Origin: Naegleria gruberi
Lineage: Eukaryota
NCBI GenBank assembly: GCA_000004985.1
Contig: GG738876.1
Strand: one strand, 5' to 3'
Length of the DNA: 64,000 bases
In this document: one piece after another, positions 139 to 61,582 of the stretch
Numbering within the stretch: position 1 is the stretch's first letter
How the letters are laid out: each line of letters opens with the position of its first letter
Program-made: the position numbers and the translations under genes
Notes under the pieces: generated by a model
The model's database searches: none
Seen by the model: only the letters and a program-made list of their open reading frames with translations
What the model was told of the DNA's origin: nothing

Positions 139-1590
139 TTGTCACTTTTCAATATCTTCCTGAAAAGGGCACAAACTAAAGTTGAAAAAAACAAAATGAC
201 CAATGCCAGTTCTTCCACAACACGAACAACAAGTGCAAGCTACAGACAGCAAAAATTGAAAAGTAAACAAATAGATAATCAACTGTACGGAAATTTATCA
301 GCACAACTTGTCTCCACCAACAACAATCAGCTCCAACTTGAACAATTACAAAAAACAACGAGACCTCTTCGAATATTATTGATGGGACCAAGAAATTGCG
401 GAATTAAAACCTTTCTAATGAATGCTCTTGATATGGAAGCTGATGATTTCATGATTCGAACCATGTTATCAATGTCTCATAGAGTGAATCAAATTTCGAA
501 TAGTAATCTTGCTGGACTTGATGATACAGAACTTACACGTCCATTGACTTTTCAACAAAAGGCAGAGGGTCTCTTTTCAGAGAAGAATAGAAATCTGACG
601 CTCAATGTGTACATGTATATTTGTAGAGGAATCAAAGTTTTTGTAAAATGGGAATGGAAATATTTTGAAAGATTGAAGAGGAAAATTCATGAAAATTATG
701 AACATCATCATTATCATGAGGAACATTTTGATTTGGTTTATAATTGGGAAGGTGACGAAGATGGTAAATTATTGGATGAGTTGATAAATGATTGTCGAGA
801 GCAGAAACAATTGAATTCCAAAATTATTTCAATTTATTCCAAAATTGTGAATTATGGAAAAAAGGAAGTAATGAACGAATTTTACAATTCATTATTAAGA
901 TCGACAAATATTAGATATTTGGATAATATTCAATAGTATGTTTGTCATAAGTTCAAATTTCATTCAAAAAATTTCAGTTTTTTCACACTTGATGCTTTCA
1001 ATAGAATTACTTCCAATGATTACAAGCCACTCAACCAAGATTTGCTCAAATCTCATCATCCAGACGATAAGGGAATTATTTCAATTCGGAGGGATGAGTT
1101 TGAATTTATTGACATTACAGGTCAATTGAATGAAAGAAGAAAGTGGATTCATCAATTTTCCAACTCTATTGATGTTATAATGTTCTTCATTCCAATTTCA
1201 GATTACAATCTAATCAATCCACTGACTGGAATGAATAGACTTGATGAGGCTTTTCATTTATACAATGAAATTCAAACAACGAAACTTTTTGAGAGAGCTG
1301 ACATTTCAATCATGTTAACAAAAATGGATTTGTTTAAAAAGAAACTAGTTTTGGATCCAATTTCGAATTATTTTGAAAAGTTTCAAGCGTCGAATGGAAA
1401 TTTAAAAGAAACTATGGAAGTGATGAGAGGAATATTTAGTCAAAATTTTGGGGAAGATTCGAATTATAGGAGACTGTTTGTGCATCAGGTTGATTTGACT
1501 GATGTGAATGATTTTAAAGTGGTTTATAGAGGAATTTCCAGTTCTCTTCGATTGGGAACTTTCATTTCAATTTTTGCTAGAAGGAGATGA
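139..1590 (+). CDS. Divergent heterotrimeric G-protein alpha-subunit-like protein, two exons (139-935, 978-1590). Intron 936-977 has a GTATGT donor and a TTTCAG acceptor.
   Basis: Exon 2 aligns to the G-alpha switch and G-box region. FFTLDAFNRITSNDYKPLNQDLL matches the conserved stretch before switch I. DITGQLNERRKWIHQF matches the DVGGQRSERKKWIHCF G3 box. LTKMDLF stands in place of the NKKDLF G4 box. VDLTDVNDFKVV matches the G5 TCATDTxNVxFVF. Exon 1 has the LRILLMGPRNCGIKTF P-loop position but with degenerate residues. Splicing restores the frame between the two ORFs in the track. Confidence 0.6.
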
Positions 1591-1613
1591 AACCTTTCGA
1601 ATAATTTACAATT

Positions 1614-3056
1614 TTATTGAGAATTTTGATGTTTCATAACCAAACCATGAATCTTTTTAACTCTCATTTCCTTGAGGAATTCCATCGAAAGTTTGAACCT
1701 GTAATGAGAATCCAACATTACAATTTCAATTTCCTTCTCCAAGAAATCAAACAAATCGTCTGGAAGCGACGAAATTTGACGATTCTTATACAATTCAATT
1801 TGAAACAAAACATCATGTGTGGACTTCTTATCAATATTTACAGATTTAGGGCCATTAACATTCAGGAATTCTTCATATATTTCCTGAGCTAATTGGAATT
1901 TCTTTGCTTCAACAACTTCTAATTCAGTTTCGAGTTCTTGAGTAGTTGAAAGATTTTTCTTTCTCTTGGTTGTTGGTTGACCAACACTGAGAGAAGTATT
2001 GGATTTGGAAGACTGATCAACAACAGAGATGGTGGAAGGAGTTGCGTTATTGGAAACTTCAGATAATTCGAAAGAAACGCTACCTAAACTATTAGAACTT
2101 TCAGTTTCTTCACTCAATGTTTGAACCAATTCAATTTGATATTCACACAATCGCTTGTACTGCTGAACTTTTTCAAGGAATTCAAAGTTTTCAGAGTTAA
2201 ATTCCTTCTTACAATGATTCTTAAAGAGATTTCTCAATCTGTCATTATTCATGGTGTGTGAAATGTCAACTGCTAGTGCTTCTCTTAATTTTTGAACATT
2301 GTTGGAGTCTGATCTAATAGCCAACCCAAAAACAAAGATAATGACTGGAACTGTAACTACAACTGCCAAGCAAATAATTGATAATGAAGTTATGGACATA
2401 GCATTAGTGATTTTTGACACTTGTTCTTGAGAAGCAAGTACATAATCAAGTACAACATCTTGTGCAGTTCTAAAAGTGTTTCTTCTTGCGATATAAGTGG
2501 CGGAAGTAAGCAATCGAACAGCTTCCGTAAAGTTTCCATCTCTAATATTCGAAACAGCTTGAGAATCAGTATCAGTCAAATAATTAACAATTCCCTGCAA
2601 ATTATTTCTATACTGCTGCGAAATACTCTGAGGTATCTTTTGAAGCATATTTTCAGTCAACTCATCATTCACTTTCGAATAATTATTATAATAAGCCAAA
2701 TATCCCTCATTTCCCGAATAGGCAGCCACCAACGTATAAGCTTGAATATAGGCAGTATACGTAGATACCTTCGCTCTAGTAGCCAACAAATCAATATCCT
2801 CATTCATCTGACTATTTTCACTATAAATCAGCAAACCAAGGAGAATGAGGAAAGTAATGGTATTGAGGACCATGGCAACCATTGCAAAGATTTTAATGAA
2901 ATTCAATTCGAGTTTGAAGAAACAGCAGTGGACTGTGAAGGTTTTTGGCTGTTTTTGATGTTTACGAAAGGAATCGTCGAGAGAGGATTGCTGGCGTTTG
3001 AGAGGAGGTGAAGATTCAATGCTTGTTTCGATTGGTTTCTTTGTTTCGTTTTCCAT
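1614..3056 (-). CDS. RGS-domain protein with an N-terminal two-transmembrane sensor-like region
   Basis: The C-terminal half matches the RGS fold. [18 protein letters not shown] matches [41 protein letters not shown] matches [44 protein letters not shown] matches [24 protein letters not shown]. Two hydrophobic helices ([20 protein letters not shown] and [26 protein letters not shown]) flank a predicted extracytoplasmic domain of about 150 aa. Confidence 0.65.
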   Translation of the reverse strand: [480 protein letters not shown]

Positions 3057-3980: not shown

Positions 3981-4970
3981 ATGCAAAATCATACTTCACA
4001 AGTACAGGGTGATTCTTTCTCATTGCCACCTTCTTCATCACCACCACCACCACCACAAGAAGTCTCTACACAACAGCAAACATCGTACTATTCATGGAGT
4101 CCAACTAGTCTTTCAGAAGCTGCCAAACAACAGCAAACAGAGTATTACAGTGGAGGTTCTCCAAGCTATTCACCAACTTCACCGAGCTATTCACCAACTA
4201 CACCCGTCTATGCTCCAACTTCACCAGCATATTCACCAACTTATACTCCAACCTCTCCTTGTTATTCTTATACCTCTCCATATTATAGTACGATTTTTTA
4301 TCTTCCGAGAGAGACAGTGCTGAGTTTTGATTTGGATCAAAGTGTATTGGAAAGGATTGAGAAGGAAACAAGAAATTGGGGAGTGTTGAGGTGGAGAAAT
4401 CCAGAGTTGGGTGAAAGATTTTGGGGACATGTTTATATGAGTGTTGATTCAAAGATTGTGGAAATTATTAGAGAACATTATGGACCGAAGGGATTAATTA
4501 CTAAAGTTAGGGAATTGTTGGGAGAGGTAGGAGAATCGCACTCTACGGTTGAGTATAATGCATTCTTGTTGCCAACACATTTTACTGTAATTGGGAGTAA
4601 GGAGTGGCAACAGGCATTCTTGGGATTGGAGAAGGAGGTTGAGTATTTTACAGTTAAAAATCCTGCAGAAAATGTATTCGAAAGTTCAATTGAGTTTGTG
4701 AATAGTCCATATAAGAGTTATTCAAAATTGTTTAAGGAAGAGAAAATTCAGGAATTGTGCAATTTTACCTATTTTACAAGATCTGGATTTGCAAATTCAC
4801 TTCCCAACGAAATTGTATCCCACATTAAACAATTTCTAATCATTGATCTGAAAGAAAGTGGACGAAAGGTTAAATTCTCAATCACTGGCCAAATTAGTTT
4901 AGTTCCAAGACAGTTTGGAGAAAAGCTTGGTTTCATTCTCCATGTCGATTGTCCAGAAATGAATAATTGA
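3981..4970 (+). CDS. Hypothetical protein with an N-terminal poly-Pro segment and 4-5 degenerate RNA-Pol-II-CTD-like heptads ([31 protein letters not shown])
   Basis: This is a long ORF. The heptad repeats are read directly from the translation. The C-terminal 200 aa are non-repetitive and have no family I recognise. Confidence 0.45.
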
Positions 4971-7426: not shown

Positions 7427-8068
7427 ATGAATAAATACCACTTTCGAATAACATTCTTCAACACAACAACAATCAAAAAAAAAATGTACAATCCAATCAT
7501 GCATATCATTCTCAATAAACCAAACACGAATCAAATCTGGACCACCACAAAACTCTACGATCCTCTCTTATTAAAATCCTTGGAATCTTTCAGAGAATTG
7601 ATAATTGCGGAATTTTATAGAGAACAATTTTTACAAGAATCATCATTGAAAGAGTTTGAGATTCTTGTGGTGAAGGTAAAGATGGAAGATGGCAATTACA
7701 AGACATTGAATGATGAATTGGAATGGGAACAATTTGTTCAACAAATTGTAAAGATGGGTCAAACTTTACAATTTCAAGTAAAATTAAAACCTGCTAGAAA
7801 AGTTTACAAAAAGCAATTGAGGGAAATTGAGCAACGTTTGAAGGAATTGGAACATGAAACTCAACTATTGAAATTGAAAAAGAAGATTATAGAGTTGAGT
7901 AAGATTAAATCTGAAGAGAAACCTCAAGATCCAAGAGATACACTATTGGAAAGTATTAGAAATGGAAAGAAACTCAAGAAAACTCCAACTAGCACCAAAA
8001 TTATAACAAATCCAAGAGATTTGTTGATGAATAGCATCAAGCAGCGTTCCAATAATTCTGAAAATTGA
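7427..8068 (+). CDS. WH2-domain, actin-monomer-binding protein with a coiled-coil region
   Basis: C-terminal RDTLLESIRNGKKLKKT matches the WH2 consensus (LLxxIxxGxxLKK). A second weaker WH2 follows (RDLLMNSIKQRS). The central region has a K/E-rich heptad pattern. The true start is probably the internal Met near 7486. Confidence 0.5.
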   Translation: MNKYHFRITFFNTTTIKKKMYNPIMHIILNKPNTNQIWTTTKLYDPLLLKSLESFRELIIAEFYREQFLQESSLKEFEILVVKVKMEDGNYKTLNDELEWEQFVQQIVKMGQTLQFQVKLKPARKVYKKQLREIEQRLKELEHETQLLKLKKKIIELSKIKSEEKPQDPRDTLLESIRNGKKLKKTPTSTKIITNPRDLLMNSIKQRSNNSEN

Positions 8069-12275: not shown

Positions 12276-12287
12276 TGAAAATGACAA

Positions 12288-15805: not shown

Positions 15806-18000
15806 CTAACGAGTATGTAAAAATCTGTGAGGATGATTTCTCTTGGTTTCTTCATAAACTTCCAAACAAAATCCAACATGCATTTGAAGGTGAAGATATC
15901 TTCTGTGTAAAAGTGGTGACCTCTCTGTCATTTGTTTGAGGTTTCTCAGGTCTTGATAGAGATATTGAGCGAGCTCTTCTACGTAATCATACAATAAATT
16001 AATGCTTGGATCATTTAGTAGATTGGATAACACATCATAGTGAATCTTGGCAGCAACTTCAACTGAGTAAATAACAGGGAGTTGGCAATACTTGAAAAAT
16101 GGTAATTGGGTTACCTTGGTAATTTCATTGGCGGCAGAGGTTATATCTGCCGAAGAAGATATTCTGTACTTGTGTTGTTTGAATAGAATCAAAGCTTTAA
16201 CTCCAAGACAAACAACAAGGAATGTGTAGGTACGATCAGAATTCATACTTGAAAATACCTTCACAATCATGTCCAATTTTGTCATTATTTGTTGAACTGG
16301 TTCTTCCAAGCTGAAAAGTTGTGGCCTTCCAGAGTGGGACATAATAGATGACCTAAGTTGGTTGAATGTAGGACTGCTCACAGCAGTATTGAGACACGCA
16401 ATGTGCTTCTCAACAACAAATTTAGAATACTCATCAAAATCTAAAATGTCACCAAATGTCAAATTGTTGACAATTTTCTTATTAATTGCATCAATCTCAC
16501 TTTCCACAACATCTGTTAGTGAGGATAATTAGAAAATTAATAACCAAAATTTAACAACATACCACTCAAATAGAATAATTCTGAAACACATAGACCTTGT
16601 CTAATAAAACTACAATGTTCATCCATGTCCTTTTCTCTTTCTTTCAAATACCATGTGCAAATAGAATAGAAATATTTGGATCTTGCCACACAATCCAAAT
16701 AACATTTAGAGTTGGCTGCTTTTGAACATGCTGTGGCTGAAGAACATTTGGATGGACTTTTGCATTCAGCACTCAATAGATAGTATGCCATCAACGTGTA
16801 CGTATAAATGACAGAACTGTCATTGGTTTGATCGAAACACTTGGAAATGTGATCTCTTCCCTTCTCGAAAAATATTTTAGCAAATCCCATATTACCAATC
16901 CTGAAGAATGAAATAGCATGCATTAAAAACAAGAATGCCAGCTTGGAGTTTCCTAGGGGCTCTCTAGGGTCAATCTTGTCTTCCAGCTCGCTCTCTAGGT
17001 CAGTTTTTCCTGTAATAGAAACACTGAGCCAATACATTAATTCATCTCTGTTGGATGGTGGGACCATAGAATAGGAAAGACTCTTATACACATCTAATGA
17101 AATATTGTCAAAATATTTTCTATCAAGCTCAATTTGTCGTAAGTTATTGAGATAGGCTCTTTCATTGATATACCTTGATTCTCTTTTCACTGGAATTGGA
17201 ACTGATGGAGGTGATTCCTTCCTTTTGGATATTGTTTTGCTCTTTCTCTCAGTAATTACAGATGAGTCATCAACAAATTGATACTCTACAACACCTGTCA
17301 ATGAATTATTCGAATTTAGTATGGTTTTTGGACCTCTTTTTCTTGCTTGAGCATAAACACATTGCTTTTGTGAACGTAGACAATTGGAGCAACCAGGATA
17401 AGCCACACGGTCACACTTTTTGTGATTCAACTTGCAAAAGATACAAGCATTATTCATCAATACAACATCTACATTTGTTGATTGAGCTGTTATTGAATCT
17501 ATATTTGAAGGACTTGTTTTATCACATGAATTAGAGGCTTTAGAAGATGCTGTAAATGTTGATGAACTCTCGGATGAGTTGTGTACAAGTAAACCTGTAT
17601 TCAGCATTGTGAATGGAGTATTTACCTGTGTAAGATTGAAGAAGTGATCAGTTGTATTGTTGGTAGTGTTTGTTGGTAATGTTGGAGTCTTCTTCTTCGT
17701 ACTTACAAAGGCTGGATTGAAATTGTTTTCCATTTGATTATTACTCCTCATCACATCACTTGATGAAGTGGCTGATGAGGTTGCATGATGATTAGATTGT
17801 TGCGCCATCATTTGTGTGATGTTATTGTTGGAGAACATGTTTTGTGAATTAAATAAGAGGTTTGAGCCAACATTAGGAAGAGTCACCCTTTCGCTCTGAC
17901 CAGTCCAGGAATTTGTCTGTTGGCATGTTGACGAAGAAGGCTGCTGATGCAAGTTCAAATTAAATTGCTGATGTTGTTGTTGATGATGTTGCATTATCAA
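15806..18000 (-). CDS. Second Zn(II)2Cys6 transcription factor. Exons are 16563-18000 and roughly 15806-16512. Intron 16513-16562 has a GTATGT donor and an AACAG acceptor.
   Basis: ACIFCKLNHKKCDRVAYPGCSNCLRSQKQCVY is a complete six-Cys cluster. The N-terminus is polyQ/N-rich. Splicing joins ...ELFYLS to DVVESEIDAINKK... in frame with phase 1. The 3' end may contain a further small intron near 15940. Confidence 0.6.
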
Positions 18001-61545: not shown

Positions 61546-61582
61546 GTCAAAAAAAAGATTTGAGATTCTATCATGGTATTTA

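Follow-up and report, generated by a model that had tools for sequence, protein, structure and literature searches.

Background

The closest described relatives of the genes treated here belong to the G protein systems of Naegleria and of plants. About 44 G-alpha genes are known from Naegleria gruberi (PMC8584482), and 13 from N. fowleri. N. fowleri has 108 genes with a regulator of G protein signalling (RGS) domain, which comprise 28 genes for proteins with seven transmembrane helices (7TM-RGS), 79 other RGS genes, and one RGS-RhoGEF, and membrane RGS proteins regulate the self-activating G-alphas of this species (PMC9283941). Variation in the P-loop alters nucleotide cycling and RGS engagement in Naegleria, as in Nf G-alpha-1, whose P-loop carries TAQ (PMC9283941). 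Among the G-alphas of Naegleria, some are known to have deviant catalytic motifs and no N-terminal lipidation site (PMC8584482, which cites Anantharaman et al. 2011). RGS domains fused to at least one transmembrane (TM) helix have been reported from most eukaryotic lineages (PMC3971589). In plants, the extra-large G protein XLG2 is reported to bind the membrane protein AtRGS1 regardless of nucleotide state (PMC8584482). The subject of this analysis is a pair of adjacent genes, one for a G-alpha-like protein and one for a membrane RGS protein (NAEGRDRAFT_69095), at one end of a stretch of 64,000 nucleotides from N. gruberi contig GG738876.1. This whole stretch is referred to as the window.

Both genes are further members of classes already described. 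They are probably two independent, lineage-specific members of expanded Naegleria G protein families, which stand tail to tail most likely by chance. The G-alpha-like protein has the motif profile expected of a pseudo-GTPase. The predicted four-helix-bundle sensor on the RGS protein would be the most distinctive element. No gene identifier of either gene was found in the searchable literature.

Gene Models and Family Assignment

The window has a GC content of about 33% and is gene-dense; NAEGRDRAFT_69095 lies on a 397-kb N. gruberi scaffold, in nuclear DNA. The two genes are arranged as follows.

196..935, plus strand: exon 1 of the G-alpha-like gene, coding for the N-terminal helix, the P-loop in its degenerate form, and a helical domain that contains insertions
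936..977, plus strand: intron of the G-alpha-like gene, 42 nt, GTATGT...TTTCAG
978..1590, plus strand: exon 2 of the G-alpha-like gene, extending from switch I as far as the C-terminus, with a TGA stop at 1588-1590
1591..1613, no strand: spacer of 23 nt from one stop codon to the other; the genes converge on it
1614..3056, minus strand: RGS gene NAEGRDRAFT_69095, 480 aa, no intron, 100% identical to XP_002675802.1

An earlier note, made from the nucleotide sequence, had placed a G-alpha homolog at 139-1590. The gene is there, and its start and structure required correction. The open reading frame (ORF) from 139 opens with TTG, and the first ATG is at 196. The frame of exon 1 stops at a TAG (934-936) that straddles the GTATGT donor, which rules out read-through of the intron. 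Removal of 936-977 joins the exons in frame and gives 450 codons (450 aa), and in the MAFFT alignment the splice junction, ...LDNIQ-Y-FFTLDAFNRI..., is in register with canonical G-alpha ...NDSAAYYLNDLDRI.... The intron is identical in a second strain (contig L004). An ATG at 76, upstream and in frame with the gene, meets a stop at 133-135. The N-terminus, MTNASSSTTRTT (MTNASSS...), offers neither Gly2 nor Cys for lipidation; an upstream exon with a Gly2 start was considered and rejected, as the N-terminal helix already has canonical length in the alignment.

The assignment to the G-alpha family, which the earlier note had itself put forward as a test, was borne out by profile search. The spliced product of 196-1590 matches the Pfam G-alpha family PF00503 with an e-value of 1.4e-41 (143.2 bits, cut-off 48.8). 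The match covers residues 127-433 and profile positions 49-329 of 333, the helical domain included. With HMMER, the spliced product matches solved G-alpha chains of the i, o, t, and q types with e-values of about 1e-19 to 1e-21, and tblastn with G-alpha-i1 hits exon 2 with an e-value of 2e-19. The nucleotide-binding and switch motifs are located as follows.

385..411, plus strand: P-loop (G1), residues 64-72, GPRNCGIKT; canonical GAGESGKST
1045..1077, plus strand: switch I, LKSHHPDDKGI; canonical LRTRVKTTGI, from the HMMER alignment to Gt/Gi chimeras and from MAFFT
1111..1158, plus strand: G3 and switch II, DITGQLNERRKWIHQF; retains DxxGQ and a conserved switch II surface
1318..1329, plus strand: G4, TKMD; canonical NKxD (NKKD in the alignment with G-alpha-i1)
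1489..1503, plus strand: G5, VDLTD; canonical TCATD

The RGS protein matches the Pfam RGS family PF00615 with an e-value of 2.1e-8 (35.0 bits, cut-off 23.9).

Convergent Arrangement of the Two Genes

The earlier note had interpreted the pair as a co-regulated signalling module. The tail-to-tail adjacency itself stands, with the gap corrected from 24 nt to 23 nt, and the arrangement of the genes argues against shared regulation. Because the genes are convergent, they have no common promoter; their promoters are about 3 kb apart, at the opposite ends of the pair. A stop-to-stop gap of 23 nt implies overlapping 3' ends and, if anything, antisense interference rather than shared control. Close convergent spacing is found elsewhere in the window: ten pairs of ORFs (200 aa or longer) converge in it, and three of these have gaps of 12, 23, and 37 nt. 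Tight convergent spacing would seem to be a property of the genome, and overlapping 3' ends seem to be routine here. The two other tight gaps, 12 nt at 12276-12287 and 37 nt at 61546-61582, separate unrelated gene pairs.

Families of this size also produce neighbours by chance. N. gruberi is said, after Fritz-Laylin et al. in 2010, to have about 15,700 genes. With the RGS gene count taken from N. fowleri and not from N. gruberi, 0.6-0.8 adjacent pairs of a G-alpha and an RGS gene are expected by chance, and the probability of at least one such pair is about 45-57%.

The earlier note had named conserved synteny as a test of its proposal, and the pair is kept at none of five related loci, within the limits of short contigs. 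The metagenomic sample ERZ27315067 represents the only other organism with close homologues of both genes, and there the RGS homologue (locus L001) and the G-alpha homologue (L002) are not paired. At L001, tblastn found no G-alpha gene, and the convergent neighbour is an F-box/leucine-rich repeat (LRR) gene. At L002, the G-alpha homologue is followed by an unrelated ORF on the same strand. The flanks of L002 contain no RGS gene, and tblastn found none near the divergent G-alphas at L003, L005 (N. lovaniensis, 8-kb flanks), and L006. The pairing is kept only on the contig of the same-species strain (L004), and scans of metagenomes with the G-alpha and RGS alignments confirmed no further case. 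A wider cluster of G protein signalling genes was also considered and ruled out; no other G-alpha or RGS gene is present in the 64-kb window, and the nearby genes are unrelated, with WH2, F-box, ATC-hydrolase-like, and Zn2Cys6 domains.

A true functional module is nevertheless the first alternative to consider. The G-alpha-like protein could be a pseudo-GTPase partner, decoy, or regulator of the adjacent receptor-type RGS protein, holding the RGS domain at the membrane or competing with canonical G-alphas, while gene linkage keeps the two co-inherited. The direct adjacency would fit such a module, as would the nearly canonical switch II, which is a major contact surface for RGS and G-beta-gamma. 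Both genes are also lineage-restricted, with their closest homologues, at 42-44% identity, coming from one metagenomic sample, and binding between a G-alpha and an RGS protein independent of nucleotide has a precedent in plants (PMC8584482). Nevertheless, the homologues in that sample are not adjacent, the orientation provides no common promoter, and the number of chance pairs expected is about 0.6-0.8. In addition, switch I is rewritten to DDKGI, and the residue equivalent to Thr182 is lost. In the complex of RGS4 with G-alpha-i1 (PDB 1AGR), the equivalent of Thr182 in switch I inserts into the RGS pocket. The RGS domain looks made for canonical G-alphas. In the neighbouring G-alpha, the switch I threonine that an RGS domain grips is gone, and there is no arginine finger to stabilise. 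A module is therefore considered unlikely. If it were real, plant XLG/AtRGS1 would be joined by a second, independent case in which a G-alpha free of nucleotide works together with a membrane RGS protein, and gene linkage would mark signalling partners in a protist; the evidence argues against this.

Several points weigh against the preferred reading of two independent genes that are neighbours by chance, one of them for a pseudo-GTPase and the other for a receptor-type RGS protein. The RGS count in the chance estimate is borrowed from another species. The synteny survey covers five loci on short metagenomic contigs, with uncertain orthology and, at L002, 343 nt downstream of the gene. Plants offer a precedent in XLG2 and AtRGS1, where a G-alpha free of nucleotide binds an RGS protein of the membrane (PMC8584482). 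We infer the loss of nucleotide binding in the G-alpha-like protein from its motifs only. The four-helix-bundle assignment in the RGS protein comes from an AlphaFold2 model based on three sequences and from Foldseek matches with e-values of 0.015 or weaker.

Nucleotide-Binding Motifs of the G-alpha-Like Protein

For the comparison of motifs, the protein was aligned by MAFFT to human G-alpha-i1 and to canonical relatives, and motifs were extracted, anchored on hidden Markov models (HMMs), from the 150 nearest representatives. The earlier note had asked for an alignment with G-alphas, and this one bears out every motif that it had listed as degenerate, although two of them weigh less than was thought. 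The P-loop reads GPRNCGIKT, as stated there, in place of GAGESGKST. The Walker A pattern GxxxxGK[ST] is broken, with Lys46 of G-alpha-i1 changed to Ile and the Mg-binding Ser47 to Lys; GxGxSGK[ST]T is present in all canonical relatives compared. Switch I has His in place of the arginine finger and is without the Mg-binding threonine, so that the motif RxxTTGI is lost.

The G3 box and switch II, DITGQLNERRKWIHQF against canonical DVGGQRSERKKWIHCF, are different in this respect. DITGQ does depart from DVGGQ, which is found in 131 domains among the 150 nearest representatives, and yet the general pattern DxxGQ with the catalytic Gln is kept, and the following LNERRKWIHQF is an almost canonical switch II. 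The G4 box TKMD likewise departs from NKKD, and NKxD is present in nearly all of the 150 nearest representatives. However, TKxD is the working G4 of Rac1 and other Rac-type GTPases, and on its own it might be tolerated. At G5, where TCATD is the commonest form among the same representatives, Cys-Ala is replaced by Asp-Leu. The two motifs for recognition of the guanine base, NKxD and TCA[TS], are thus both missing from the G-alpha-like protein. As the 150 nearest representatives are mostly canonical, the deviations are real outliers. Since DITGQ fits DxxGQ and TKxD works in Rac-type GTPases, the truly disabling changes are, as far as the sequence indicates, those in the P-loop, switch I, and G5.

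These changes suggest a pseudo-GTPase that is nucleotide-free or locked, one that would bind guanine nucleotide poorly or not at all and would not hydrolyse GTP. Such a protein may act without nucleotide cycling through its switch II, a surface of the G-beta-gamma-binding type, and through its subfamily-specific C-terminal tail. It could serve as an adaptor, a sequestering subunit, or a scaffold, by analogy with the extra-large G proteins of plants.

The alternative is that the protein still binds and cycles guanine nucleotide in an atypical manner, with the displaced Lys of GIKT reaching the phosphates and with the neighbouring or another RGS protein helping catalysis. The retained DxxGQ with its catalytic Gln is consistent with this, as are the working TKxD of Rac-type GTPases and the Lys-Thr pair left in the P-loop; a relative from N. 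lovaniensis has GKKT at this place. P-loop variation in N. fowleri tunes the kinetics of G-alphas and does not abolish activity (PMC9283941). The losses in the present protein are nevertheless cumulative, as they affect the geometry of Walker A together with the arginine finger, the threonine that binds Mg, and the Cys-Ala of G5. RGS domains stabilise the switch regions and supply no catalytic residue, and for this reason an RGS protein cannot replace the missing arginine. Atypical cycling is accordingly judged improbable, and a pseudo-GTPase is preferred.

Relatives and Maintenance of the G-alpha-Like Gene

A phmmer scan with exon 2 against 1.8 billion representatives returned 3916 G-alpha matches, with only two close relatives (P0004 and P0005). 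No close orthologue from N. fowleri or N. lovaniensis was found among these representatives. P0004 is a fragment, 99% identical, that derives from a different N. gruberi-like strain; the contig on which it lies, L004, has 99.5% DNA identity and carries the same G-alpha/RGS gene pair. P0005, from the European Nucleotide Archive (ENA) sample ERZ27315067, is the closest homologue from another organism, with 44% identity. It carries DISGQ, TKLD, and VNLTD, which fit the patterns DI[ST]GQ, TKxD, and xLTD that it shares with the window protein, and the two have the block MFFIPISDYNL in common. The two proteins also have in common an unusual C-terminal tail, LKLGNLYTMFAKQRQ in one and LRLGTFISIFARRR in the other. 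Because P0005 is intact and has the same deviant motifs and tail at 44% identity, the degeneracy is ancient, and the reading frame has been preserved after it arose.

The gene appears to be unannotated in N. gruberi, unlike the adjacent RGS gene. A word-index protein search with the full spliced product gave no match, probably because low-complexity words dominated the candidates, and a search with exon 2 gave only a 99% identical ENA metagenome fragment and no annotated N. gruberi protein, though the neighbour is present in the annotated proteome.

The reading frame indicates a maintained gene and not debris. A decaying or silent pseudogene, which the missing annotation, the loss of several catalytic motifs, and three non-synonymous changes among five nucleotide differences between the strains (two are synonymous, and five are too few to estimate selection) might suggest, is very unlikely given an intact stop-free run of 450 codons (chance about 2e-15 at the base composition of the window), canonical intron signals with the frame kept, and the shared old changes in P0005.

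Similar variants occur in other divergent G-alphas. P0010 and P0071 (both from sample ERZ27315067) and P0053 (N. lovaniensis C9374_010133) have similar variants of G4 and G5; at G5, P0005 has VNLTD, P0010 VDLTD, and P0053 VNLCD. The P-loops in the group of P0010, P0071, and P0053 are intact or partly altered (GMHGSGKTT, GSSGSGKTS, and GSANSGKKT), and pairwise scores do not clearly unite these proteins with the window protein. The divergent G-alpha-like genes at L003 (792-1804), L006 (2512-3636), and L005 (8001-9032), from ERZ27315067 and N. lovaniensis C9374_010133, have variants of the types T[KYH]xD and V[DN]L[TC]D, no arginine finger in switch I, and a P-loop that is intact or nearly so. 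Their motifs suggest a wider heterolobosean group of GTPase-impaired G-alphas.

The RGS Protein and Its Predicted Sensor Domain

The RGS family to which NAEGRDRAFT_69095 belongs has three members: the window gene, its paralogue NAEGRDRAFT_57445 (47% identity), and a metagenomic homologue (42%). The protein is divided as follows.

2820..2888, minus strand: TM1, residues about 57-79, hydropathy peak 2.52; preceded by a basic juxtamembrane stretch with the invariant Cys45
2394..2819, minus strand: extracytoplasmic domain, residues 80-221, predicted four-helix bundle
2679..2738, minus strand: Tyr-rich motif Y107..AAYS.N..YL.YY..Y126, residues 107-126, at the membrane-distal end of the bundle
2319..2393, minus strand: TM2, residues about 222-246, hydropathy peak 3.05; the flank after it, on the cytoplasmic side, is basic
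2106..2258, minus strand: N-terminal half of the RGS domain, residues about 267-317, with E289 and N290
1950..2105, minus strand: Ser/Thr-rich insertion, residues 318-369, which splits the RGS domain; Ser and Thr make up 38%
1662..1949, minus strand: C-terminal half of the RGS domain, residues about 370-465, with N407 and D449/R453

The description of this protein in the earlier note, as an RGS protein that is not of the 7TM type and is built of TM1, an extracytoplasmic domain, TM2, and a cytoplasmic RGS domain, agrees with the hydropathy analysis. There are exactly two hydrophobic segments with a 142-aa loop between them, and the same is seen in the paralogue and the metagenomic homologue. 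The flanks N-terminal of TM1 and C-terminal of TM2 are basic and the start of the loop is acidic; thus, the topology is N-in/C-in with the 142-aa domain outside.

The note had also called this topology bacterial-sensor-like, and the model of the ectodomain supports the likeness at the level of fold and topology. The AlphaFold2 model of residues 40-262 has a predicted local distance difference test (pLDDT) score of 76 overall and 82-95 in the core, and in it four helices are bundled in the order up-down-up-down, the first and the last of them continuing into TM1 and TM2. The top PDB matches with Foldseek are ligand-binding domains of chemoreceptors (MCP2201, PcaY_PP, Vc1313, and Tsr), so that the nearest structures are bacterial periplasmic four-helix-bundle sensors; the matches are weak, with e-values of at least 0.015 and 6-14% identity. 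Homology was not detected: no Pfam family matches the ectodomain, and no sensor family such as 4HB_MCP or TarH appears even at an e-value of 5. In the model, the invariant residues gather at the membrane-distal end of the bundle, where the Tyr-rich motif lies together with G174 and N175 (segment of residues 174-185). This cluster is a candidate ligand-binding or dimerisation site.

The Pfam match to the RGS domain is stretched, with 194 residues for a profile of 117 positions, because the Ser/Thr-rich segment divides the domain. This insertion is predicted to be disordered (pLDDT <50) and is plausibly a phospho-regulatory loop. Both halves of the domain align to RGS proteins of the R4 type (RGS5, RGS1, RGS8, and RGS4) with HMMER. 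E289/N290, N407, and D449/R453 correspond to E87/N88, N128, and D163/R167 of RGS4 and are invariant in all three family members; these RGS4 residues grip G-alpha in the RGS4/G-alpha-i1 complex (PDB 1AGR). With its G-alpha contact residues intact, the domain is predicted to be competent as a GTPase-activating protein (GAP). The full-length AlphaFold2 model has a pLDDT of 56, and the RGS region is helical in it at low confidence (pLDDT 27-71).

The protein may thus be a receptor-type GAP, in which a ligand or partner would bind the conserved aromatic end of the bundle and alter the availability or activity of the RGS domain. Its effect would be to tune how conventional Naegleria G-alphas, many of them self-activating, hydrolyse GTP. 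Such a role agrees with what is known of several Naegleria G-alphas, which self-activate and are controlled at the step of GTP hydrolysis by RGS proteins of the membrane (PMC9283941). A more far-reaching proposal joins both genes again: the RGS trio would be an uncharacterised eukaryotic receptor-GAP class in which a two-TM, chemoreceptor-like four-helix sensor, maybe acquired from bacteria, has direct control of an RGS domain. The adjacent dead G-alpha would be its dedicated nucleotide-independent partner, scaffolding or gating a ligand-regulated GAP, and the two genes would make up a compact signalling unit. This is judged highly unlikely, and two independent genes remain the preferred reading.

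Other Genes in the Window

Three further ORFs of the window were recorded. The 329-aa ORF at 3981-4970 (plus strand) has an N-terminal third made of heptads like those of the C-terminal domain (CTD) of RNA polymerase II; it has no Pfam match and could be a CTD mimic or decoy. The ORF at 7427-8065 (plus strand, 213 aa) contains a WH2 actin-binding motif (Pfam e-value 3.5e-8). At 16540-18000 (minus strand), a 'fungal' Zn(2)-Cys(6) binuclear cluster DNA-binding domain is found in this heterolobosean amoeba (Pfam e-value 6.5e-7).

Comparison with Known Systems

The G-alpha-like gene adds an apparently unannotated entry to the N. gruberi catalogue. It is a clear sequence case of a G-alpha pseudo-GTPase and helps to ask what G-alpha scaffolds do without GTP. 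A close parallel is found in plant XLG1-3, atypical G-alpha subunits that are largely independent of nucleotide and in which the G-alpha fold is likewise kept although the motifs for nucleotide binding and catalysis are degraded. By analogy, the window protein would be expected to act nucleotide-free as they do, through binding of G-beta-gamma and of partners. The differences from XLG are considerable. The window protein does not have the long Cys-rich N-terminal extension with a nuclear localisation signal (NLS), the residues lost are not the same, and it is known from sequence alone. It also has a separate origin, in a heterolobosean lineage-specific expansion.

The Naegleria G-alpha expansion is a further close setting, with the same genus and the same family. 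The characterised N. fowleri proteins retain the Walker A Lys, the arginine finger, and the Trp of switch II, and in comparison with them the window protein is far more degenerate.

The RGS protein is comparable to the 7TM-RGS proteins, AtRGS1 and the 28 of N. fowleri, as a membrane protein with a C-terminal cytoplasmic RGS domain that has canonical GAP contact residues. The presumed logic is also shared, in that an extracellular input would control GTP hydrolysis on self-activating G-alphas (PMC9283941). In contrast to the 7TM-RGS proteins, it has two TM helices, a 142-aa four-helix ectodomain in the model, and an RGS domain that a disordered insertion of about 50 residues interrupts. A family of two-TM RGS proteins with four-helix ectodomains would extend the logic of a regulated GAP rather than a regulated guanine nucleotide exchange factor (GEF), as in Naegleria and plants, to a sensor that is not of the 7TM type.

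The third comparison is with bacterial sensors such as Tar/Tsr, PcaY_PP, MCP2201, Vc1313, NarQ, and HK9. They have the same order of TM1, antiparallel four-helix bundle, and TM2, with the end helices entering the membrane. The output of the window protein is a eukaryotic RGS domain, and it has no HAMP, kinase, or methyl-accepting chemotaxis protein (MCP) signalling domain. Four-helix bundles arise easily, and common ancestry with the bacterial sensors is for that reason not established; the likeness is one of architecture, with a sensor-like ectodomain set before an RGS output.

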